Positions 1,311-18,048 are shown, numbered from the stretch's first letter. The stretch is 64,000 nt of DNA from Lingula anatina (GCA_051362555.1 CM120642.1:31992001-32056000); one strand, 5' to 3'. The notes: a model not told the origin generated them from the letters alone. Numbers and translations: made by a program.

Positions 1311-4300
1311 TCTGAACATTTATCATGGGACCCAACACCTAACCTTCACGAATCTCAGGAACCATCAGATTTGAATTTAAAAATTCCTTTTTTCCAGAAT
1401 GCTGAATATTCGTCTGATATTGCATGCAAGCATGAAATATGAATCACAATCTAGAACGTTAAACCCAAATAATGCCCACAGAATTGTGTGTGAAGAACAA
1501 CTTCATAATAACTAGTACCTTTAAAAAAAAGAGTTTGGAAAATGTAAGAGTCAGGGGGAGAGAAGAGGAGTGCAGCTCTTTTATGAGCTTTATGGGGTCA
1601 GGGGATATAAATACGACACTCAAATATCTGTAAAACTTGTGTATCTCTACTAGGTGCACAGCTCACCTCCAGTCCTATCCTCAGCCATAGTGGGTTGTAG
1701 GAGAGAATCATGTCAAGGACAACTTGTTTTATACCTGAAACAATATCAACACATGGTTTTCTTTTACTTTTAAAAATACTATCAAGGGTTATAGATATAT
1801 ACCAAAAAAGACGGTCATCATTCAAGGATCTCAATATTGCACATGCTTAGTGCAACACTTAGTGGTCAAGATTAAAATGTGCATTTTGTTATCAAACTAT
1901 ACTTGTATATCATTTGGATGAATGGTGTCTTTTGGCATCAATGACATACATCAAGAAGTATAAATTGCAGTAAGTCAGCTCATACCTACACATACTCAGA
2001 CATTCAATACACTCACCAAGATCTGCATGCAGCTTCCGATCTTTCCTGACAGCAAGATGACCCGTTTCTATCTCCGCCTCGATCTTCCTAACACCCATCA
2101 CAAATGTCTCAGACTGGAACAGCAAGCAGGCAGTTCTCCTCAAGCGATTGAGGCGCCTCCTGGCAGAGTACGCCCTCAGGGAGAGGATTTCTTTGGTTGG
2201 GGCCAGTTTGTTCACTGTGACTGAGGTCACACACAGGGAGCCAGCATCAACTGAACACAGGGGAAAAATGATTGAATTAGTGTTAATTTTATCAATGTTG
2301 CCCTGCTATGAGAAATTGACTTCTCAAGAATAGATAAAAAATATTTTTTCAGTTGTGAGTTTGACTTTGTGAATTACTATATGAAAAAATAATCAGATTG
2401 CACTTTTCAAGACCCAATTCTTTAAACATCTAGAAAAATCTCCACAACTATCAAATTGACATCTAACAAGAGAAGATCAGTTTTGTGTTAAGTAGGGAAG
2501 ATAGTTGCTGACATCAATTCTTACCTTTGCCAGGTTTCCTTCCATCCCCAACATCCTCCTCTGGCGTTAGGATAAAGTTCAGCCACCTCTCAAAGCCCTT
2601 CTCTTGCTTCTCTATCCACCTTTCGTCATAGTACATGTTCTTAGACGCAAACGGCATCGGGTGTCTTGGGATGGCTGCAAACAGAAGCACAGGTAACTTG
2701 AATGAATGTTTAACTTGGTCTTATTTCTTACATAATTTTTTAAAACTTAAAATTAGGTCTGAGAGAACTGACAAAAGCATGCAGCGTACACTTCAGAGAA
2801 GCCTGGTCAGTGAACTGCTTTAACGGAACTTAAAGGGAACTGCCGTGTATGATTGTTTGGTTTTTTAAAATGTAGCAGTATAAGTCTGTGACAGGAGCCT
2901 AATTGCCAGGTTATATGTAACAGTATATAAGGTTATATGTAAGTACCCGTTTTGTTTGCCGTCTTCATTAGCACCAGTTTTGATGGAGCCAGACCCTTCA
3001 CAGGTCTCTTGGTCTTCTTGGCATCTTTGAAAGATTTTGCTTTTTTGGCAGACACTGCACAATGAAGAAGTTGAACAATTTAAACACGGTAAGAAGTCTT
3101 GGCTTTTGCCATTAAGTCCAGAGCAAGCATCACAATATTTTAAAAAGATTTATTGATCTATTTTTATCGTTATTCAAAGTGCATGTGGAGTTTTAAGTGT
3201 TACATGTAAGACGCAGAATTACCAGAGCTGGACTTTCTCTATATAAATCAAATCTACATCTGCCAGCCAGACTACTCACCAGCCTTCCTGAGCTGCTCAG
3301 TTCTTGTAGGTTTTCTCTCAGTGGACAAGATGGACTTCACAGGTGTGACCGGTGCCACAGCTTGAGCTCCACTGGACTCCGCAATGTCCTTGTTGAGGGA
3401 AGTCACAGAATCACTTGGCTTCACCTTCTTCTGCGCGCCTACTGCAGCTTTCCTGGCTTCACTCTGGCTGCGCGTCGCGCTGTGTGTTCTCTTCTTTTTG
3501 GCTGCTGCAGACACCGTCATGGCTCTGGACAGGTGCCCCTGGTTGCTGGATGACACAGTTTTTAATTGTGGCTTTTGTAACTTTGTTTGTGGATCGTTTG
3601 GTTTGGATTGAACCGTAGCTTTATTTTGAAGGTCAGTTTTCTTCTTCGGGGAGATTTCCACAGAGTGCACACCTTCATTAGGCACTTCTTTCTCTTGGTC
3701 ACTTTCTTCCTGTACCTCATCAAGATGGCTATCTGCAGTGGATGCAGCATGAGGTGGAACTTGTGCAGCAGCTGCCTTACCCCTGGCTGTGCTGGTCACA
3801 GCACCATCCACTGTCCAGGTGGTTCTCCTGGGACTCTGGCCATACTCCTCTGGCAGGGCTCTGGGGCTGGTATGGGGGAAGGGATGCTTAAAGACAAGAA
3901 CCAATGGTACCTGGGCCTCCTTTGGTGGTGTTGAGGGCAGAGCAGGAGACAAAACAGGAGAGTTTGCTGACTGAATCCGTCTCATTTCTTGCTCTTTCTG
4001 GACTGTCCATGTGGTTCGTCGAGGACTTTGTCCTAGGGCCTCAGGAATGTCCCTGAATAATTCTTTCTTCCCTTTACATAGCAGTGCTGCCTTGTCCTGC
4101 TCACCTGTCTTCGTCTTGGTGACAGTCAGTGTGCTAAGTCTCCTGGGATCAGGGACATCAGGTGTGGCACTGACTGGGTCCATCTGGCTCCTGGGAACAA
4201 CAACGTTTGTGTCCTCATTGGTAGGTTTGACCTTGGTCACTGTGTCTGAGATCAATCTCTTGGGGACGATCCTTGGCGTGCTGGACAGCCTCTGCTTCAG

Positions 4301-7258
4301 CTCCGTCTTCACAGTCTCTAGCTGCTGCACCAGGACATCGTGAGGGATGGACTTGTCAAACAACTCTCCTGGACTGTGCTGTAATGTGGCCTGGGGCTGG
4401 GGCACAGTGTAGGTCTCCTGCAGGAAGGAGTTAGGAGACACATGAACTACATGGTCTGTTTCCCTACCGAGTGGTGTCTGTACCTCCACAGCAATCTCCC
4501 TTGTCAGGGGCTGGGTCTTCTTGCAGGAATTCTGCAGGAACGAATTGGGGGTCACTTTCATGTCTGTCTTGGTGCCCATGTTGAGGGGCGTGTTCAAGTT
4601 GGGCTCGTCTGGAGACAGCTGGGGTCGGGAGGACCCCTGGAGGAAGGAGTCAGGACTGAGGTAGCCCACCTTGGAGGGCGTGTCCTCCATGTATGCCCTC
4701 TTCATCTTCAGGTAGTCTGCCGGGGGAGTGTCCAGGTACAGAGGGGTTTTGGTTTCACTGACCTGCTTTTCTACAGCTTCATAGACCTCCAGCCCTGGAG
4801 CTGCTGTTTGGTCTCGGCTTGGACAGTCCTGTGGCACCACCTTCAGTTCTGTTTGTACAGCTGCTATTTGAGCAGTTTTCTGCTGGGCTCCATACTCATC
4901 TTCTGTCAGTTCATTGATCTTCGTAAAGGTCAGTGATCTACGCATATTTTTTGGTGTTCTAGGCAGTAAGGCGGTAAAATCAAAATCAGACACTTCACCA
5001 CAAGTGTAGGTTGCATTGTCATTTTCTGCTCTGTCACTGTTGTCTTCTCTGGTCACTTCTGGTGTGTGGGTTTTGTTCTGGATTCGTACAATTTCTGGTG
5101 TGCGCGTAACGTTGCAATCTGTCTTCAATTCTGGAGAAGTAAGGGCAGTAGCCTGTGGTGCCGTGGTTTTCTCTGGCGTACCAGTCCTGTTCTGCACTCT
5201 ACTCACTTCGGGTGTACTTGCAGTTCCAGTCTCTCTACTCACTTCAGGTGTACATGCAATTCCAGTCTCTCTGGTCACATGGGTGGTGTTCTGGACTCTG
5301 TTGTGGTCTGGAGAGTGGGTAGTGGTCTGAGCCCTGGTCACTGTGTTCTTAGACTTGGTGACCTCACGGAGGACTTTCCCATCAGGAGTGGACACTGTGA
5401 CGATGGTCTCTGTTATAACACTGTCCACTATGACGTCAACTTCAGAGTACTTGGCATGACCATCTGATGTTTTGTGGTAGGTAGGTTCTTCCAGTGACCC
5501 TTCAGAATGGACAGGATCCCCTGTATGGCCCTCATTTGGCAGGTTTTCCTTGGTTTCTGCACCTGCCTCCAATTTTGTGATGGCAGGTACAGCTGCCTGC
5601 TTGTTCTCTGTATCAGAGAGGTCCACTGAATTTTGGTCGTAGCTAATCTTCAGTGCAGCTTTGGCAATCTTTTCCTGCTGTTTCCCCGAGGAAGTCCTCT
5701 CTGGCTCTGTGTTGGGGATGTTCTTGGACTGCAGAACAGTGAAAGGTTTACTTTTACTGCCCCAATGTTTTCTGACCTGAAACAGAACATTTTCAACAGG
5801 TCAGTACAGCATAGCTTGCCCAACATAACAACAAATGACCTTTTACGCGATTCAAAATACTGTCATATTTCGTATTCTATTTATCATGAAGTGTTTCTGT
5901 TCATCTTAATTTAATGTGGAAGATAAAGCAAACAGCATCATGAAACATTCATGACATATGAATTATGAAGGATTAGATATATTGGAAGCCACAGTTTAAG
6001 TAATTATACAAACAGTACTATTTAAACATTTGTCACATGCAAAGAATAAAGAAATGATTATGGATTTAAGAAAAAGGTAAGAATAAATGGATAGGGGGCC
6101 TTATGAATGAGGGCTTGGGGGCTGTTTAAGAATTAGGAAAAAAAAATTCATTTAATATTTTTAAAAAATCATGTCTGAGGAGGTCTTTCATACCCTCTTA
6201 GGCTGAGGAGGGGCCAGCGCTGTGCCATAGACGATGGTTGTCAGTCTGTATGCATCATCGACATGAAACTGAATCATCTGGCGGCAGTTGCCTTCTTCTG
6301 CAGGCTCCCACACTATCTCGAGGCAGAGGTCACTCTTGGCGGCCACTGTGAACTCCACCATGTCTATACTGAAGTTCTTCTTGAAAGGGAATTTCTCGAC
6401 TACCACATCTTGGTCGTAGTCGTGAGGGTTACGAACCAAGAGTTGTCGCTTTCTTGTCTTCTGCAACTTCACCTGAACAAAATAGAATAACAAAACATAA
6501 AAGGGAGTAAAAGTGATTTAATATTAAATAATCAATATAAATAATAAATAAATTTATTTAAATAATATAAAATCTGGGGTAGCGCTAACACTCGCCAATT
6601 TAGCCAAATGCTAAAACTGACATAAATTGGCTAAACAAAAAGGGCTTGATTTAACTTGTTTTAGTCAAATTATTATAACCATTTGGATAACAAATTAACA
6701 AAACAGTGGTGATTTGGCTAAGCAAAAAATAAATTGCTAGTGCTACCCCAGAAAATATTTAATTTCTTGCTTGTCCCTTTGATCAGTATTCCTATGTGAT
6801 GATTTTAGTAGGATTACTTTTTCTTTTCATAAATATTTAACAGCCAAATAAAAATAATAAAAATTCTTGTAAAAAAAAATAATGCTTACTTATCCTCCCT
6901 CAGTCATTAAAACAGCTGAAGTTTTAGCATCCATTGGGTAATTCAAAGTTGTCAAAGTTCAAAGATGACTAACATCAAGCTTTTAAAAGTAGAAAATAAT
7001 TCAAACCTTTCCAAAGTCTATCCTGGGTGGCTTGGTAAAGTGCGTCAACAGCAGCACCTCCACGTCTGGGGGTGCTGGCTTTGGGTCATTCTCATCTGCC
7101 AACTTCACCGGAGGTGTGTTGGTCATGAACCATGATCTCCGCCCCTTTTTCTTGGTAGGGTTAACATTTTCATCAGCTGGTATGGTGGGTGTGGTCAGTA
7201 AGGGCTGGTCAGTATTCAGGACGGTTGGCGCCAACAAACTGGAAGGGTCAGCTGCCAT
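139..7258 (-). CDS. ASPM: Abnormal spindle-like microcephaly-associated protein (Asp/ASPM), 5' part; gene continues past the left edge
   Basis: Frame-consistent GT-AG exons in transcript order: 7007-7258 (ATG 7258), 6194-6472, 3280-5776, 2947-3054, 2525-2674, 2017-2250, 1667-1734, 1018-1159, 769-899, 139-314. They encode an ASH domain ([18 protein letters not shown]...[19 protein letters not shown]), a long S/T-P-rich region, the hallmark [49 protein letters not shown], and the start of the CH domain ([20 protein letters not shown]). A probable non-coding first exon ends at 8077 (minus-strand GTAAGT donor at 8071-8076). Confidence 0.96.
1270..1308. repeat. Poly-A tract (A39) in an ASPM intron
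   Basis: Homopolymer run; similar runs at 18052-18088 and about 22417-22442. Confidence 0.9.
6573..6752. mobile_element. Small degenerate MITE-like element in an ASPM intron
   Basis: Terminal inverted repeats TCTGGGGTAGCGCTA / TAGTGCTACCCCAGA, with internal TTAGCCAAAT/ATTTGGCTAA inverted sub-repeats. Confidence 0.5.
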
Positions 7259-8099
7259 TGTGACCTGAAACTTGAAATATATGATACTGATGTATGATTG
7301 ACGGTAGCTACTGCATGGCTAAGGTGTAAAAAAAATCATGTACTACTACACGATTTTGGGAGTTGGCATCAAGCAACAGCAGCAGGTAGTGGCCTCATTT
7401 TTCAGCTTGTCAAATACCATACTTTTTTTTTACATTTTTGTAAAAGTTTAAAGTGAGTAAAAGACAAATAAATGGTTAAGTACTAGTATGGCAACTTTAT
7501 TAAATTTGTTTAAAATACATCACTGACTTTGATCTCATTCTTTATCTTTATTACTATCATTATTTTATTTATTTTCATTACGATTTACGTCTGGTCTTCT
7601 CTTAAACTGCCATGCAACATGTCATGTCTATGTATATTTGAATAATTAAAACGTACAAATATATACATATCTATAATGTATGCAAATTTAGAAGACTATC
7701 AGTTCTAATTAACGGATCACTACACAGGTGCTGTATCCTCGAATAATTTAATATGGTTTTGAAACCGATCAAAAAAGCCAGGACAAAGGCACTTTTTAAT
7801 ATGTCGGCTATGTTGAAACGTTCTTTTGTCTAATATATCTGACACTTTAACTAATAAAACCCTTCTCTACTACTCTGAGAAACGATAATTATGGCATCAA
7901 ACTAAATATGTGACAAAATCGTAGAATTGGAATATTATTTGCATTGGCTTTCATAAGGCCAGAAAACATAAAGGTTTATCAGATCTAAGCTGTGTGTTGA
8001 GTAATTAAGTGACATATTGCAAAATATTCATCGAAATGTATTCCCTCTACATACAAACATGTTTAAAACAACTTACTTTCACTCCTGCTCAGGAAACTC

Positions 8100-8280
8100 T
8101 ACCAACATATCATGTTTTCAAGTTGAATTTGGAACGTTTCCACATGTAACCAATCAGACACCGTGTTGTAAAACAAAGAACCAATCAAAATGCTTTTAAC
8201 AATTGGCCTTTTAAATTTCAACCGGAAGTTGAAACCGGAAGTTTATGTGTGTCATGTGATCGGGTCAAAATGGTGGATTG
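8100..8280. promoter_or_regulatory. Bidirectional promoter shared by ASPM and the CTR2-like gene
   Basis: CCAAT at 8150-8154 and 8181-8185 (31 bp apart); ATTGG at 8202-8206; CHR-like CTTGAA on the minus strand at 8117-8122; tandem ETS ACCGGAAGT at 8221-8229 and 8234-8242; M-box/CLEAR-like GTCATGTGAT at 8251-8260. The cluster lies between the divergent first exons. Confidence 0.65.
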
Positions 8281-8372
8281 AAGTCTGTGTTTTTAACGCT
8301 CTCAGAAATTCAGCATTTTTCTGCAATTCCACAGAATGCAAAGCCTTTAAGTCGCCATCTGATGTGTTCAAA

Positions 8373-9727
8373 ATGATGGGAATGGTATGTAAAACTTAAA
8401 ACTTTTAGCATTCACCTTTCAACGCCGTAATCGTCTTTAAATTAGTAAAGTAACTTCCCTCATAAAGACGAGTCCACCAAGGCAATGCGATTACATCTGT
8501 CAGACTAAAATATGCGCAAAACGCCGCGATACACAAGCAAAAAAAAATTAACGAGTCCAGTCGCAAATAAAGAAAATATCTTATAAAAGCGAATCATAAT
8601 TACTAGCTAATTATTACCGTTGATACAACTTGAGTCCACACGATGTTGGCATGTGCCTATCTGTTAAGTTGTTTCAACGATTTTAGTTACCTGGTTATAT
8701 ATTTCGCTTTTATATCACCATATTTATTGGGAATTACCATTTCCTGTGTTGACTTGCCACCTATAAGTGTAACTGTATTGCGCTCTATTAGGGCGTATTG
8801 TGCATTTAAATGGGATCACAAAATTGAAGTGAAGGGGATCACAAAATTTTTGACTTAGGCTCATCTTTCATAAGGACGCAAGTATCAGAACATCATGTTA
8901 TGTATAGAGTTATTGATACATTATGTGCACGTTTTCTTAATCTGTTTCAGTACTTTGAATTTAAGGACAGTTTACACAACTTCCTTATATATGGATGGAA
9001 CACATCTACCCTAAGTAGTAAGTACAGTAAAGCCTAGCCAGAGCCTAGTTTTTTCTGTTTTATTCAGTTTCATGTAAATGTCGAAGACATTTTTTGAAAA
9101 CTGTTATATTTTTTTTAATGTGCTTAAGTTGGCACACACATTCTTGCAACATCAAACCAAAAACTGTATTAAACAATTATGACGGCCCACTTTTAGCAAA
9201 ATGAAAATTGCATTTTCAGAAGTGCTGATTAGCAGTTTTCCTCAAATGTGCCATACACTCCAATACAGCACAACACTGTAAAACTGAAAAAAAAAAAAAA
9301 ATGAAAAAAATTTTAAAAAAACCTGCCACAAGTATAATGAATATGATTCAAATTGTCCACCATGTTGGCAAGTTTCTTTTCTTGGCAATATGGTGGGTGA
9401 CCCAGTGTAATGCATTGTGTTGCACTGTATTGTGTCATATTGCACATTTTAAGGAGACCCATAAATCACTTGCCTTAGTGCTGACGGGAATTTATTATAT
9501 TATTTTATTTATTTTAGTGTTTTTCCAAATGTTTAGCAGGATACATTTATTGACTCAAAATTATTGACATTGATTATATGAAAAAAAGAAAGTAATTTGA
9601 GAACCTCCTTTGGACTAGAATAAGACTAAATTTAAAACTAAATTTTGTATACTTTTTTTTTTTGCATTTGTTAAGAAAAGGAATTTGTTTTATCAATTTA
9701 TTTGCTTTGTTCTTGTTTTCCTCACAT

Positions 9728-9783
<56 letters not shown>

Positions 9784-12700
9784 TTTATTATGCAAGATTT
9801 GTTATGACATAGATATCACAGATATGGCAAAAGGAAAGGTTTATTTTTGAATATATCATTTTCATCCTAAAAAATTAGTTAAAGGTATAAGTACTATAAG
9901 TGTTTGAACATGCCTCAAAGTCCTCTTTGTATGTTGTTATATCCTGTAAAGCTACTTATCTTTCGAAGTTCAGACCTTAAAATTACAAAACTCCTCAAAT
10001 ATAAGTTAATAATGAGTTAATGTTAGAATAAATTTTCCTTTCTCTCTCTCTCAAAAAAAAAAAAAAAATTAAATTTGGCATGAAAATCCTATATAGAGAA
10101 TACCTTTTATTTAAGATTTCTTTAATTCCAGCATTTTTCTCTTTCCTTGTTCTTCCAGTGTGCTTCTTATACAAAAGCAAAGTATTCAATACATTTCATT
10201 TGATTATTTCAGCATTTAACATTTAATGAATATTTTCCTCATTCAGGTTTCCTGGTAATTATTGCAGTGTGTTTTGCCCTGGCACTATTAATAGAAGGAG
10301 GAAGAGCATTACATTCAATCCTTTCTCACAGGGCAAACTTAAGCCCACTTGTTTATGCAAAAACTAGCAGAAATGTTGCAGAGACCACACCGTTACTTCG
10401 TTCACTTATTATTCCCACCAATGTTGACCAGATTGTAAAAAGAAAGTAAGAAAAATAGTGTTTATGTATTTTAGACTTTTTACATTGCACTGTCTAACAT
10501 CTATAGCAGATCATTCAGTGTTGTGTTTCAACCCTAACACATCGTAGATTATCCACAGATAAAATTTCACTGAAGTGGAATTAGTGATTGACCTTTAACC
10601 AGTGCTTTTTTAAATAATTTTCCAACAGTTTTGATCATCATTTTTTTTTTTTTTTTTGCTTTTGCTTGCTTTGATAATTTTTATTACTTGGTTTATGGAT
10701 AATATTCAGGTAAATTTATTCCTTGATTGATGTTTAAAAGTCCATAAACTTGAGTAACTGATTTTCAAAGCCGTGATTGTTTAGCTTACAAAGCTTCTCA
10801 CTTCCTCTGTTGTTTGCATCTTATTTTTCAACTTATTCCTATCACATTCATTTTATGGCATTTTATTGTTAGAGGGGTTTCATTGACTGTGTTTATTTAT
10901 AACTCTCCAAACTGTCAAGGCATCCAACTTCAATGGAACCGATTGTTTGATGAGGTTTAAATCCAGTGATACTTGTATCTGTCCAGGGCCCTTCAAAAGA
11001 GAGGAAGGACCTCGCCAATATCATAATTCCCTGATGACACAAAATGCTGTTATGAATACCTGAATAGATATACCACTGTTTTTTTTTATTCAAAATAGGT
11101 ATGGGAAATTACTTTCAGAAAAAAAGTATGCTGATGGATAAGCCTTACAGTAGATTCTACTCTGTCTCTCATTAGGTTTTTTCTTTTTTTTAATTGTTGC
11201 TATCTTTAAAGGTTTTGTAGGCACCATCTTCATTTTCTTCTTTGCTGCCATGATGTTGGAGGGAATTATGGGAATGTTGGCTAGTCTTAGAGATAGGAGT
11301 AAGGTGTTACCAGCATCTGTCAAAGAAAGGTTGCTTGAACCCATCAGTGAAAATTCTCCTCTCATTGGCAAAAGCAAGTCCTTAACTGAATCTGGGGAAA
11401 AACTTATTAAACAGAAAAAGTAAGGAACTATCCTGGACCCGTGCTTTATTAATTGTTTTGAAAACCTCACACTTACAAACATTAACCCTTATCCTATTTT
11501 CCACCCTGCTCTCGTAGCTGACAATTGACTCTTGGCTGATTTACACAGCTTGAGTTAATTGTCAGTTTTAACTTTACATCTGACTATTGATTGGGACGTC
11601 TTGATAGTCCGAAGGTTCTTTGGTCCAAAAAATCATCACATTTTCATCAATTTTTTTTCAAGGGTTCATTGGTCTGAAGGTTCTTTCTATAGTGAACATT
11701 TGGACCAATGAACCTTTTGACTATTGAACTTTTGGACTATTGCTACGACCCCCTTTTGATACTTTAACTCTGAAAGTCCTTATTTTAGATGCACAAATCT
11801 GTCATTTTTGGTTTATAGTTTCTTTTTTAAAGTACTACTTGACCTTTGCTAACAGCAGCATGTGAAATTTTTTTCATTTGATAAAGATGACTTCACATTT
11901 GCTTATTATGCTGGTTTACCATCGATTTGATGATTAATAACAATTTGATGCATAAACTAAAATTAAACTTATGTCACCCAGCAACAAAACTAACTAATAG
12001 GAATAGCATCCCTCTCTATAGCAACATAGCTATAATGCAAAATGGTAAGGTGAAAATATTCATATTGTATGTAACGCTTGTGGCGTTAGGTAACTGTAAT
12101 GTTGTTACCCTACAAAGATTTTAAAAAGTTTCTTGGCATGCTCACTTCAAAAATAATTGTCATTGTAAAAGTTAAATGTTCCTTTGTTTTCAAAAATGAA
12201 TTTTTAAATAATTTAGGAACAGTGTGGCATTTAAAAAACTGCACTGTGGTATTGACAAAATTTTGTTTGACAGAAATGATTGCATAAGATAAAAATCATA
12301 CATGTACTGGGTATACTGAGTATTTGAAATTATTGGATAATTTAAACTTCACTTAAGAATTCATATTTGTATGTAACGTGAATTTTCAATCACATTTGGT
12401 ACATGATATTAAAACTTCAGGATAAAGTATCATATTGGGATGTCCTTGCTGCATGTGGCCAAAGTGGTGGTAGCCTATGTGGTCATGCTGGCGGTCATGT
12501 CTTATAATGCATGGGTGTTTGTTACTGTGGTTATAGGTAAGTGGACAAGACTAGGACAGTGGCTTAGCTGTCTGGCAGGCCTACTGAAGCTGCTAAACAA
12601 TAATTAATTACCCACTATCAGCTTCAGTGAGCATGACAGACATCTAAGCGGCTTAAGTTGATAGCAATTTAGCGAGAATCTCCATGGAGAAAAATCGATC

Positions 12701-13066
12701 CATAGTTAGTATGTTAGGGTCTGGGAATAGCCCCAAGGATACTGTTTGGAAGACTTTGATTTATTATTTTTTATGATTGCATAAATTTTGTTTTACAAAC
12801 TGATCAAAGCAGTCTGTGATCTCTTTGTTGTTAATGCTATTCTCTGTCAAACATTTTTGTGAAGACAAGAAAATATTACATAGTTACTGTGTCAACTTAC
12901 GTACATGGTGTTTGTCAATATTTCAGGCAGTGCTTTGGGATACTTGATTTTTGGAGCCATTCAGCATAAGATCACCACTGCTGATACGCCTGACACTCAC
13001 ATAATAAATAACCAGGATGACCTGCTAGGCACGCACTCACAGACTAGCTATGAGCCTATTGGTTAA
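8373..13066 (+). CDS. SLC31A2: CTR/SLC31 copper transporter, CTR2-like (isoform using exon 3A)
   Basis: Exons 8373-8384 (MMGM), 8951-9017 (YFEFKDSLHNFLIYGWNTSTLS), 10247-10445 (TM1 plus loop), 12421-12536 (AYVVMLAVMSYNAWVF, the MxxxM motif of TM2), 12927-13066 (GSALG GxxxG of TM3, stop TAA). All phases are consistent. The short N-terminus, lack of a C-terminal HCH, dileucine ETTPLL and C-terminal YEPI fit a CTR2-type endolysosomal protein; the CTR1/CTR2 assignment is inference. Confidence 0.9.
9732..9780. repeat. (GA)n microsatellite
   Basis: About 24 perfect AG units in CTR intron 2. Confidence 0.95.
11212..11419 (+). CDS. Alternative duplicated exon 3B of the CTR2-like gene (putative mutually exclusive with 10247-10445)
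   Basis: T-rich tract plus AAG acceptor and GTAAGG donor. 208 nt, phase 1 in and phase 2 out like exon 3A. Open frame FVGTIFIFFFAAMMLEGIMGMLASLRDRSKVLPASVKERLLEPISENSPLIGKSKSLTESGEKLIKQK aligns with 3A FLVIIAVCFALALLIEGGRAL...ETTPLL...QIVKR. Confidence 0.8.
11593..11753. mobile_element. Degenerate foldback element with ~16-bp sub-repeats
   Basis: Left half repeats AGTCCGAAGGTTCTTT/GGTCTGAAGGTTCTTT; right half has the inverted GGACCAATGAACCTTT/GACTATTGAACTTTTGGACTAT. Confidence 0.45.
12560..12735. mobile_element. Partial copy of a palindromic dispersed repeat (same family as 62570-62815)
   Basis: Shares TAATTAATTACC...CAGCTTCAGT...GACAGACATCTAAGC.GCTTAAGTTGAT.GCAATT.AGCGAGAATC...GATCCA...GGGAAT with the VARS2 intron copy. 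Confidence 0.7.
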
Positions 13067-16000
13067 CTCTAACAACATCAAGAAAGAATAAAAAACTGAA
13101 GATGACTGTGATTATTTCTAGGACGTGAAAATTGCTTGAGGACAAGATGGACATTTTAGTTGTTCATGGGGATTGTGAGGATATTTTAATTATGTTTGGA
13201 TGGCAATCATGCTCTGTAATATTTATTATAAAGAACATAAACACATACAATTATATGCATGCCCACACCAACTTGACATTTAGTGCTATTGCAAGGTCAC
13301 AAGCAGTAAAAAATAATGACTTAGATATGAAATAAATAAAGAGGGAAAGAGAATAGAATAGAAGCAAGAGTACACATCAGCAAAATATTGTAAATATTTT
13401 TATACAGTGCAATAATGGTTTTTTGTACTCTGGGTAAATATGCAGGGTTGTTTGTGAAGAATGTGACAAAAAAGTAAACGTAAGGGCAAACAATGTTAAG
13501 CTAAATCAAGGAATTGATGAAGTTAATTAAAATTCAGTAGTCTGTGTATACTACAAGGACAGTAGCAAACAAGACTGGGGCTTTCATTTGGTATATTAAT
13601 CAGGAATATTTTAGTGTGCTCATGTATTTAATAAATATCAGAAAGTAATTGGCTCAACTCCAATGTTAAGAGATAATTGACATGATATTGGTCTCTTAGT
13701 TATATGTTTTTAAGCATATAACAAAGAGAATATCATAGCATTGCAAGAATATCATAGCATTGCAAATCAGGAGTTATAGGAAGAAATGATAACTTATACC
13801 ATTAATCACTGATTATTGGCTTTAACTTATTGACATAGTGATATAATGCTTTTAATACATGTGCCTGGCAGTCTTTCTTTACTTGGGTAATTTTTAAAAT
13901 ATTTTCATGTCTTAAAATATATAATCAAATAAATTTTTTGCAAACAAAGCGTGTGCAGCTAATTGTTTTAGTCATATAAATATAACTAAAAGGCAACAAG
14001 TCGGCTTTCACATTAATTTTTTTGCATGTGTATTAGATAATTTTAATAGGAAGTAGTTTCATTTGCTGGTCATTGATATAGGCTTTTTCGGTATCGTACT
14101 AGGTAAATATGAGATCTTTAATCATACATTTCACTTAATGTTTGTTCCTGTACCTGAAACTTTTAATGTAAGTCTTTCAGTTGCACTTCTTTTCTGTGAA
14201 ATTTGGAGATAATAGCATGATTTATCTAGAAATCCTTATTCACCCCCACACAAGTTGTGCACTTTTGGTGTTTGAAAATTGGTATCACATTTTAAAGGTC
14301 CACTTACATCTCTGAAAATTGCACTGAACTACCTTTAAGGTGACATGCCTTAGACAGCTTAAAACCAAAAAATTAATAAAATTTCTATTTAAAGTCATGC
14401 TGCCATGTCAACTCTCAGATAAGGGATATCAATTCCATGTAAGCAGCACGCAGCTTTAATCCAGACATAAGCCCCCCTTTTTAAAAAAATCTCTGAACAT
14501 TTAATTTGAGACCAAATGCTTAATGTACTGAGGAACTAAATCGGGGTTTGCCCCACGGCACATCAGAATTGAATCCGAAATTCTAGGATTCCACAAAAAA
14601 AATCTGTGCATGCTATATAAGTGATAGAATCCCAGTAAAAAAATCTATAAGGAGTGTAATGCAACTCCATCTGTATATACAAAACAAGTCGGTTTCTTAA
14701 GCTTTTTATTACACACTGACAAGATTCATACAAAAGATAATTTATAAGCTTTAATACAAGTTGTGATATAAGGCAACTATTACACCATTATCATGTAGTG
14801 CACCTTAAACAGTGTACTTATTGATCATGTTACTATGTACAATATATTCTACACATTATCAATGGCACTGTACATACAACTGGAGCTGCTAGAAAGTAGG
14901 ACAAACTAATAAAGAATAACTTTACAACATAAACAAGGCAGCAAAGCTGTCAAATGGACAGATATGCAAATGACAAAAGTGATACTGGTGGCATTAAAAC
15001 GGTCCAAAAATGAACCAATTTAGCAAAGAAACTGCAGTTACTGTAGTTTTTGACCAATTTTAATGCAAAATTACATGATGCTAATAGTACAAACACTATC
15101 AATTTTTAATTGTACGTTAAAGATGTTGTGGACATTCAGAAAATGAAAACTTCAATATTAGTTTTTACTTTATGGTGTTTATGGACAAAATAAGCCAATA
15201 AAACTTGCAGTGATGACAGAAACAAGTGAAGGCAATGTCCAGATATATAGCATATGTCCATCAAATTGGAAAAGATTCTAACATTGCGGTTACATAAATT
15301 GATTCAATTTATCAATTTACAAAAATTAATAAATAAAATATTGAAGGCATTAAGTCTGTTACATACAATTAATCGAAAATGTTTTTATTAAGACCTGCAT
15401 AAAGATAAAGATTAGATGCATCAGATTAAGAGTGAAATGACAAATATCAATTAATCTGTCAAATGTCAATGATACTTAATGATACAAAGGTGAAATACCT
15501 TGAAATCTTAAACATCCACTATTACCAATCTGGAAAATTACCTACCAAATATCATCTGGGCAACTCATAATCATTCCTTTACACATTATGAGTTGCTTTG
15601 GAGGCAAGACAATAAAATGCTTTCACGGATGTTGCTGTTCAGATAATTCAAAGTTTTACAGATTCTCAGATTTCCAGTAAATTCTTATCAAACCCAATTT
15701 CCATCCCTGGGTTTATGTGGGGGACCTATGAACATGACCTTGTATGTACCTTTCAATATTAAAAATGCTTTAATCTTATGCATCATACAGATCTAGATGC
15801 ATTAAATATGTTTAGTGCCAGACTAACACGAGAATTACTTTCAATAAAACTTATGTGTAAATTCACTGTCATTCTAGCAAAAATCTTCAGGATGCAATTT
15901 CATAGAGGACTAAATTATAAATTATTTCAGTCACGAAAGTGAATGGGTACTTCTCTGCTATTTCCATTGCCTAGCAGACTGCACAATCTGAGATTCACTG

Positions 16001-16504: not shown

Positions 16505-18048
16505 TTAGAGTTGAGAAGCTGCTGAGAGGATGCTATCTCCTTTGATAAGTTCTGTTAGCAGACTGAATGTTGGGATTGTTCCTGCCATGTGCTTCCTGAC
16601 CAGTTGTTCTTTGGCTATGACTGCAGTCTGCGTGAGCTCTCCAATGCGCAGAAGAAGTTCGCCAAATTTCGTTGGCATTTCTGGGAAGTGTGTAGAGGTG
16701 TAAGTGAGGAGAGCCTCGTTGATGTGGTCTTGATATTCACGGATGCTGGTTGGATTCTTCAAACCATCAATATCTGAAACAAAGTAAAGTTTAAAACATT
16801 TATTAATACTATAATAATAAATACTGTAACATATATAAAAAATTCCTTTTGATACGACATTGCGAACCAGCAAAATGTATGGCTGCTAAAAATAATGAAC
16901 CTTGTATTCATTCTGAACTACGTCTATTTTAACTATAGCATTTTGTTGCAAACAACAGTTGAAAACAGAGCATTTTCTATTTACATGTTAATTATTATAA
17001 AAAGTTTCTGTGAAGAGTATTAAGTAAAACTTGTTTTCCTCACTATCTACTATTTAAGAACTTTTGATAGCGGCATAAACTAAACACAAATATCGATGTA
17101 ATATATAGCAGTTTATTTAAGTGCATTTGAGAACCTAACAAAGGAAGAACTGGACAATGGTGACCAACTATTGCTGAAAACATACCAACTAAAAAGATGC
17201 ACTCCACCTACCGGGAGATATTAACACTAGCACCTTGAAGCAGGCATACTCATGCTTATCCACTTTTAACCTGCGCAGGTGCTGAGTTAAGTTCAAAAGA
17301 CGTGTAAACGTCTCCTCTACTTCAATGGCCCGCGCCATCTCTAGGGTCATCAGCTTGCCGTTGGACAACAGAAGCTGGTTCTGGACGCCAATGGACCGCC
17401 AGCAGCAGCCCACCAGGAGCAGCTCCGACCATGCATTCTGTAGCATCAAGATCTGATCATCGGTCTGAAAACACAAACTTGGAGATTATTTTTCTATATT
17501 TTTCAAGTGCTACCCCGAGACATGATTTTGATATAGGAAAAAATGGCTTCTTAACCTTATGGGAGGCCACATATCATATGGAAGAAAAAAATGGATTTCT
17601 GTTGAAAAAAAAAAAAAAAAATTGATGAAAAAAAGTTGAAAAAGCGTGCTGAATGCACAAGTGCTTTTAAAAAAGCATCTTATGACATGTAAGCAAGGAA
17701 CCGTTTGATTTTTCCTTTTAGATGATGTGCAAATCAAGAAAATTCTTTAGAATGTAAATCTTGACTTTTTTTACCTAATAAAGTCAAGATATTTCATCAG
17801 TGAATTCAATACAGTTCACTATTATAATCAAGATATTTCATCAGTGAATTCAATACAGTTCACTATTATAATCAAGATATTTCATCAGTGAATTCAATAC
17901 AGTTCACTATTATAATCAAGATATTTCATCAGTGAATTCAATACAGTTCACTATTATACAGGTAACTTTGTGAACATAAATACTGGTCAATGACCATAAA
18001 CAAATAAACTTGTCAAAAACTATTCCACAAGATTACTTACATATATAC

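Follow-up and report, generated by a model that had tools for sequence, protein, structure and literature searches.

The window analysed here is a stretch of 64,000 nucleotides from the brachiopod Lingula anatina (GCA_051362555.1 CM120642.1:31992001-32056000), and all positions are counted from its first letter. It contains a copper transporter gene of the SLC31 (CTR) family in which two alternative versions of exon 3, termed 3A and 3B, encode the first transmembrane segment (TM1) and a cytoplasmic loop. The features of the locus are listed below, with the reads joining each alternative exon to its neighbours summed over eight RNA runs.

3275-7318, minus strand: ASH-domain gene (Pfam ASH, E 7e-19), head-to-head with the transporter
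8222-8242, no strand assigned: two tandem CCGGAAGT boxes (at 8222 and 8235), immediately 5′ of the transcript start, within the head-to-head gap
8264-8384, plus strand: exon 1, 5′ UTR and first four codons, ATG at 8373 (from molecule ends and junction reads)
8951-9017, plus strand: exon 2, common to both isoforms (from junction reads)
10247-10445, plus strand: exon 3A, 199 nt, RefSeq isoform X2; 78 reads in, 90 out
10446-11211, plus strand: intron between 3A and 3B, 766 nt
11212-11419, plus strand: exon 3B, 208 nt, RefSeq isoform X1; 546 reads in, 260 out
12421-12536, plus strand: exon 4, common to both isoforms (from junction reads and homologue alignment)
12927-13580, plus strand: exon 5, common to both isoforms (from the frame, the depth of reads and the ends of molecules at 13580)
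16508-17485, minus strand: exons encoding the ligand-binding domain of a nuclear hormone receptor (Pfam Hormone_recep, E 3e-10), tail-to-tail with the transporter

The tandem boxes are presumably ETS-type sites, and the gap in which they lie is possibly a bidirectional promoter common to the transporter and the ASH-domain gene, which we take to be ASPM-like. RNA molecule ends cluster at 8264-8277, and the junction between exons 1 and 2 is read in all eight runs. Two short upstream ATG frames can be seen by eye in the 5′ UTR (8337-8376), one of which overlaps the start codon. Intronic repeat elements at 11560-11760, which has internal inverted repeats, and at 12560-12730 attract many partly matching reads from elsewhere.

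Gene structure and identity

The coding sequence is assembled from 8373-8384, 8951-9017, either 3A or 3B, 12421-12536 and 12927-13066, giving an open product of 177 amino acids with 3A and 180 with 3B. Exon 2 encodes the short luminal or extracellular N-terminus up to the start of TM1 and ends in phase 1. Exon 3A supplies TM1 and a conserved cytoplasmic loop (with PLxY, ETTPLL and LxIP), while 3B supplies a Met-rich TM1 and a diverged loop in which the dileucine word is kept as ENSPLI. Exon 4 carries TM2, with the MxxxM filter and a conserved His, and the start of TM3; exon 5 carries the remainder of TM3, completing GxxxG, and a C-terminal tail with the word YEPI, followed by a stop codon at 13064-13066 and a 3′ UTR to about 13580.

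The first-pass annotation of this DNA, made from the sequence alone, had proposed the coordinates, lengths, phases and borders of the two exons, all of which agree with the sequence. Each exon follows an AG (CAG for 3A, AAG for 3B), begins with GT and ends in AA|GTAAG; both have lengths of 1 modulo 3, are entered in phase 1 and left in phase 2, encode the same region of the protein, and are free of stops in one frame only, the frame that had been proposed. Inclusion of both exons leads to a stop at 11282-11284 and skipping of both to a stop at 12423-12425, so that, as had been claimed, either event breaks the frame. Open intervals bounded by AG and GT are common here (41 of 121-300 nt in 9018-12420, many of them nested), and the case for an exon pair therefore rests on homology and on reads, not on geometry. 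The peptides of 3A and 3B align with a score of 48.5, compared with -7.4 +/- 7.8 for shuffled sequences and a value that none of 2000 shuffles reaches, at an identity of 18-23%; aligned over the loop only, which removes the composition bias of the transmembrane segment, they retain a z of 3.5 (p 0.0025). Likeness between the introns flanking 3A and those flanking 3B is confined to AT-rich sequence, in a comparison made without a shuffle control.

A search with the 3B peptide retrieved isoform X1 of the Lingula anatina 'probable low affinity copper uptake protein 2' at 100% identity, and the 3A peptide retrieved isoform X2 of the same protein at 98%. Searches of longer proteins with the exon peptides returned the Lingula isoforms only (1 of 35 and 1 of 105 candidates), in a protein library clustered at 50%, which would mask close isoform pairs. 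RefSeq holds both isoforms at two near-identical loci on two scaffolds, which differ at one residue and may be haplotypes; the window products differ from their nearest records at 2-3 residues. The exon pair is thus already in RefSeq as unlabelled isoforms X1 and X2, and the description of 3B as a hidden exon has to be dropped.

By its sequence features, the gene is a CTR2-side SLC31 gene of L. anatina. The two isoforms score 83.3 and 77.7 bits against Pfam Ctr (PF04145; cut-off 25.3), have a short N-terminus without a Met/His-rich domain, and do not have the C-terminal HCH motif. A quick tree of 100 proteins (98 picked near-full-length proteins and two more, with partial and very long matches excluded) places the gene in a group of 64 rows with vertebrate CTR2 (SH-aLRT 97); the opposite group, of 36 rows, is rich in HC-type tails and is labelled by tail motif only. 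The MxxxM residues of TM2 (M118 and M122) are invariant in 97 of 97 homologues, and the glycines of GxxxG in TM3 are found in 92 (G135) and 91 (G139) of them. Both motifs, like the TM1 Glu, are common to the two isoforms, in keeping with the proposal that the pair combines the same filter with a different TM1 and loop. The 'EG' described at the end of TM1 in both exons is present in the window, although its Gly is Ala in both RefSeq 3A proteins. Structural models of both isoforms have three long helices (25-57, 86-118 and 123-150 with 3A; 25-58, 85-121 and 126-153 with 3B), with a pLDDT of 94-97 over TM1. Compared with known structures, the 3B model, the one model searched, best matches salmon Ctr1 (6M97/6M98; Foldseek probability 1.0, TM 0.55), at an E of 0.013 that falls short of the 0.001 mark.

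Exon use in RNA and the maintenance of exclusivity

Eight of the nine raw RNA runs listed under the same species label were mapped (X1-X8, names unrelated to the RefSeq isoforms), from studies P1 (X1-X3), P2 (X4-X6) and P3 (X7-X8); the share of reads used was about 6% for each of X1-X6 and about 25% for X7-X8. Counts are of reads, not fragments, and likeness cut-offs differed between the two mapping rounds. All four junctions predicted for a mutually exclusive pair are read: 9017>10247 by 78 reads, 9017>11212 by 546, 10445>12421 by 90 and 11419>12421 by 260, summed over the eight runs. The first count includes 25 reads listed as 9018>10249 (6 in X4 and 19 in X6, with one letter between the blocks), which we read as 9017>10247 with an allele at 10248; this allele, in the second base of 3A, would turn the codon at the junction, immediately ahead of TM1, from Ser into Arg. 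Neither a join of 3A to 3B (10445>11212) nor a double skip (9017>12421) is among the joints listed for the eight runs, which are of short reads and list a joint when it has at least 3 reads at two starts; the listing covered every joint in the first mapping round and all but five in the second. The use of exactly one exon per transcript, deduced in the first-pass annotation from the frame, is borne out by these reads, in which 3B is joined to the common exon 2 and not to upstream exons of its own. Reads into and out of each exon are as follows.

Run X1 (P1): 3A 0 in, 0 out; 3B 161 in, 85 out; 3B share 1.00
Run X2 (P1): 3A 1 in, 0 out; 3B 155 in, 84 out; 3B share 0.996
Run X3 (P1): 3A 2 in, 0 out; 3B 213 in, 83 out; 3B share 0.993
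Run X4 (P2): 3A 9 in, 7 out; 3B 3 in, 1 out; 3B share 0.20
Run X5 (P2): 3A 1 in, 15 out; 3B 9 in, 0 out; 3B share 0.36
Run X6 (P2): 3A 22 in, 8 out; 3B 0 in, 0 out; 3B share 0.00
Run X7 (P3): 3A 21 in, 29 out; 3B 2 in, 3 out; 3B share 0.09
Run X8 (P3): 3A 22 in, 31 out; 3B 3 in, 4 out; 3B share 0.12

The 3B share is 0.99-1.00 in P1, 0-0.36 in P2 and 0.09-0.12 in P3, a difference in which effects of tissue, stage, treatment and genotype are inseparable, the samples being known by code only. Junction reads of 3B reach 19-25 per million records in P1 against 0-1.1 elsewhere, and those of 3A stand at 0-0.17 in P1 against 1.7-5.0 elsewhere. Because 3A falls about tenfold or more while 3B rises, P1 reflects a switch and not an addition. 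The locus therefore holds a real, expressed and strongly switched pair of mutually exclusive exons, a conclusion we hold with near certainty; the near-complete switch between samples goes beyond anything in the first-pass annotation.

Further features of the reads concern the samples and the exons themselves. Across 8100-13700, most reads of P3 match the window at 90-99% and carry many fixed differences, which suggests a distinct population or a cryptic species; the P3 samples also use both exons. At 11396, inside 3B and beside an A-rich run, 111-150 molecules start in each of X1-X3, amounting to about 40% of local depth; mis-priming is the likely source, and a truncated 3B transcript is possible. 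Among the best-supported read-level variants listed, three lie inside 3A, all of them silent, and one lies in 3B (K to E).

Several ways of keeping the two exons apart were considered. Steric exclusion, for which the distance from donor to branch point would have to be below about 50 nt (PMC5740500), is set aside, since the 766-nt intron is far longer and the AG-free zone before 3B spans only 34 nt. Incompatibility of U2 and U12 sites is likewise rejected: every donor is of GTAAG type or GTATG, and RTATCCTY does not occur in 9018-12420. A scan for docking and selector pairings covered the 25 longest of 281 inverted pairs; among these, the pairs close to the exons consist of poly(A)/poly(T). 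A scan for splicing-factor words gave no TGCATG and one ACTAAY. Under the 50-nt rule of nonsense-mediated decay, a stop more than 50 nt before the last exon junction marks a transcript for degradation. The stops in both wrong products lie beyond this limit (251 nt upstream of the last junction after double inclusion, 111 nt after double skipping), and decay coupled to the frame thus likely helps to enforce exclusivity. Frame-shifting lengths of this kind are found in 60% of human clusters (PMC5740500). Decay could not cause a shift from 99% to 10%, and we therefore infer a regulated factor. The acceptor of 3B, an AAG behind a tract of 68% T, is a plausible candidate for the target of such a splicing factor; that of 3A is a CAG behind 49% T.

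Ancestry of the exons and consequences for the protein

Exon 3A resembles the corresponding region of orthologues in Tubulanus (48% identity), Owenia (42%) and Lineus (38%), to which 3B is only 20-23% identical. Of 97 homologue loops, 22 match the loop of 3A at z>5, among them those of nemerteans, an annelid, molluscs, a bryozoan, an echinoderm and a hemichordate; none of the 97 matches the loop of 3B at this level, its top score of 4.4 being to an unrelated-looking loop. An NPL-like word is found in 18 of the 22 loops like 3A, PLxY in 13 and LxIP in 18, and 15 are exactly 55 residues long. The dileucine-like word [DE]xxxL[LIF] occurs in 13 of them, or 8 in the strict form [DE]xxxL[LI], and is therefore conserved but not universal. 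The 3B loop, at 58 residues, keeps the dileucine word only and has neither PLxY nor LxIP. In a tree of the exon alone (25 of 35 rows, with 10 short or divergent loops dropped), the branch of 3B is 1.39 long and that of 3A 0.65; the tree neither unites 3A with 3B nor rejects that clade (p-AU 0.46), and groups 3B with a shrimp CTR row (83/87) under a long-branch warning. A kinship with the shrimp row was rejected as a long-branch join, the 3B loop scoring a z of 4.2 against it, which is not the best of the 97. Nothing like 3B was found in relatives among the homologues compared, and none of the six same-cluster isoform pairs compared from other species differs by a swap of exon 3. Exon 3B is thus likely a derived, fast-evolved copy and 3A the ancestral type; the simplest account has exon 3 duplicated in the lineage leading to Lingula and 3B changing fast thereafter, and the pair may be confined to lingulid brachiopods.

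The comparison also brought out variation of the loop in other lineages. In P0103 (Mercenaria isoform X2) and P0090, NPLTYG is kept, a 19-residue part holding the dileucine and LxIP is absent, and the loop is 36 residues long compared with 55, so loop variation by splicing may occur in other lineages too. The chiton Liolophura sinensis has two CTR2-side genes (P0084 and P0100), one with a conserved and one with a divergent loop, possibly the same outcome reached by gene duplication. The fixed-length cytoplasmic loop with NPLxY and LxIP is a feature of CTR2-side proteins of invertebrates, from nemerteans to hemichordates; the vertebrate CTR2 rows do not have it, and the literature examined describes no function for it.

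The two exons also differ at the inner end of TM1, in a substitution that the first-pass annotation had not picked out. At position E+3, three residues after the TM1 Glu, Lys or Arg is found in 88 of 97 homologues and Met in one; 3A has Arg and 3B has Met. As had been claimed, 3B brings four additional Met, TM1 containing four in 3B and none in 3A. In salmon Ctr1, where E+3 corresponds to K83 (E80+3), it is TM1 that makes the pore narrow towards the cytoplasm, Zn is coordinated by E80 and H135, and a positively charged cavity is likely rate-limiting (PMC6437178). The replacement of a basic residue by Met at E+3 is the change that points most specifically to a possible difference in function. 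Two points weigh against a reading in terms of the pore exit: the nine homologues without Lys or Arg at E+3, which include the closest nemertean orthologue, and the side chain of K83, unresolved in the crystal (PMC6437178).

Differences in the loop concern its conserved words and its predicted order. Loop residues 71-90 are modelled with confidences of 76 and 81 in 3A, as short helices, and of 62 and 69 in 3B, in alignments that hold homologues of the loop for 3A only. Acidic dileucine and YxxPhi words act as adaptor sorting signals. An acidic dileucine is present in both exons, as ETTPLL in 3A and ENSPLI in 3B, and the C-terminal YEPI, a YxxPhi word, is common to both isoforms, and by default the two are therefore not expected to differ in compartment. 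The first-pass annotation had the trafficking loop swapped between isoforms; the loop does differ, 3B lacking PLxY and LxIP, but the putative sorting signals themselves are kept. It had also spoken of two channels, of which two products stand and channel status is overstated for a gene on the CTR2 side. According to a review, mammalian CTR2 does not transport copper unaided and works via CTR1, by a mechanism described as unclear (PMC11918410), so that possibly neither isoform forms a channel alone.

Interpretation and known systems

The reading we favour, at a probability of roughly 0.55, is that this CTR2-side gene splices exactly one of 3A and 3B in a sample-dependent manner, and that 3B is a derived exon which retunes the exit of the pore and drops contacts made by the loop. 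Its directly observed parts are the four junctions, the switch, the frames and the common TM2 and TM3. The process can be divided into three steps: duplication, choice of exon and assembly. Tandem duplication of exon 3 would have given rise to 3B, which diverged fast while 3A retained the ancestral sequence. A tissue- or stage-specific splicing factor would then choose between the exons, the AAG acceptor of 3B being the weaker and lying behind a U-rich tract, and nonsense-mediated decay would clear the rare products of double inclusion and double skipping. Both proteins would form CTR trimers with two identical Met rings and an identical Glu/His pair; in 3B, the Met at E+3 and three more nearby would lower the positive barrier at the inner constriction and add soft ligands there, altering the flux of Cu(I). 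Both isoforms would likely still reach endosomes or lysosomes, because the dileucine is kept in both and the YxxPhi word is common. A bolder version, which is tentative at best, makes 3B a second copper channel encoded in one gene, with a Met-rich inner TM1 that takes away the conserved positive charge of the pore exit, perhaps an additional, third ring of Met, and an almost all-or-none switch in a copper-hungry tissue or stage. If true, Lingula would provide the first case of mutually exclusive exons in SLC31, and with it an experiment of nature on the limits of CTR2 flux.

The alternative nearest to the view of the first-pass annotation is that the switch acts on trafficking or partner binding and not on the pore: having lost PLxY and LxIP, 3B would be sorted or recycled differently, bind CTR1, a chaperone or an adaptor differently, or serve as a non-conducting subunit in mixed trimers. 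The conservation of LxIP (18 of 22), PLxY (13 of 22) and the 55-residue length (15 of 22) in loops like 3A, the greater confidence and short helices of the 3A loop model, and the dependence of mammalian CTR2 on CTR1 (PMC11918410) all speak for it, and we consider it possible, if rather unlikely. It has to contend with the dileucine in both exons and YEPI in both isoforms, with the exchange of the salmon Ctr1 loop for an unrelated protein with activity retained (PMC6437178), and with the fact that PLxY and LxIP have no known partner in the literature examined.

A neutral account, by which 3B is an equivalent duplicate that has drifted and the exons divide the expression domain between them (subfunctionalisation), would fit the retention in 3B of all core residues (the TM1 Glu, a hydrophobic TM1 and the dileucine), its long branch (1.39 versus 0.65), and the standing of the loop as the most variable part of the family. 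We judge it improbable, given that 3B has stayed open and in phase at an identity of only 18-23%, has retained the dileucine although the other conserved loop words are gone, is the form found in the samples with the highest expression, and has lost the E+3 residue kept in 88 of 97 homologues.

The switch might instead be genetic, a cis variant in P1 disabling 3A or strengthening 3B as a population polymorphism. All three 3B-dominant runs do come from P1 and have near-identical allele patterns, and populations visibly differ, as the reads of P3 illustrate. P1 nevertheless shares many alleles with P2, where the 3B share is 0 to 36%, a few 3A junction reads persist in P1 (1 in X2 and 2 in X3), and total expression there is several-fold higher, which fits an effect of tissue or stage; a genetic switch is thus distinctly unlikely. 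Less probable still is an ancient pair, present in the protostome ancestor, with the 3A type surviving in most lineages and the 3B type in some arthropods; the grouping of 3B with the shrimp loop (83/87, loop z 4.2) would be its trace, but this join is flagged as one of two long branches, none of the 97 scores passes 5 and another reaches 4.4, and the six same-cluster pairs show no difference in exon 3. The idea that 3B is a pseudo-exon, results from misassembly or belongs to a separate gene, as the 41 chance open intervals and the two RefSeq scaffolds might suggest, is refuted by the 546 and 260 reads joining it to exons 2 and 4 and by the listing of both isoforms at both RefSeq loci.

Set beside known systems, the gene agrees with the SLC31A2/CTR2 family in passing Pfam Ctr, in its short N-terminus, MxxxM and GxxxG, and in having no C-terminal HCH, and differs in its two alternative exons for TM1 and the loop. 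Salmon Ctr1 is its best sequence match (profile E 1e-42) and shares the Glu/His pair and Met rings; it differs in the long metal-binding N-terminus and HCH tail, both CTR1 features, and its K83 corresponds to Arg in Lingula 3A and Met in Lingula 3B. The closest parallel in splicing is SLC39A14 (ZIP14), a metal transporter with regulated mutually exclusive exons, 4A and 4B (PMC10470845), which are 170 nt each, not a multiple of 3, and encode peptides resembling membrane segments (PMC10470845; PMC5740500). Its fold and metal are unrelated and its exons equal in length and visibly similar, whereas 3A and 3B share 18-23% identity and extend into a long cytoplasmic loop. The versions of exon 4 in SLC12A1 (NKCC2) also encode a transmembrane segment and alter ion affinity (PMC6873903); there are three of them, in another family and with measured function, compared with two in Lingula known from sequence and reads. 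SLC25A3 is a further transporter precedent (PMC5740500).

Mutually exclusive splicing is a well-known mechanism, and the pair is apparently undescribed for SLC31. No description of such exons in this family was found in the accessible open literature; the available part of PMC7318467 has no case of CTR splicing, and the ten accessible supplements of the human catalogue of mutually exclusive exons have no row for SLC31A1 or SLC31A2 but do list SLC39A14 (PMC5740500).

By what means CTR2-type proteins move copper, and whether they can do it alone, is an open question (PMC11918410) for which the Lingula pair offers a natural test. The two isoforms are identical save for TM1 and the loop, and direct swaps between them can probe the inner end of TM1 and the conserved loop. 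With this pair, a family of metal transporters joins those in which mutually exclusive splicing tunes a membrane segment.
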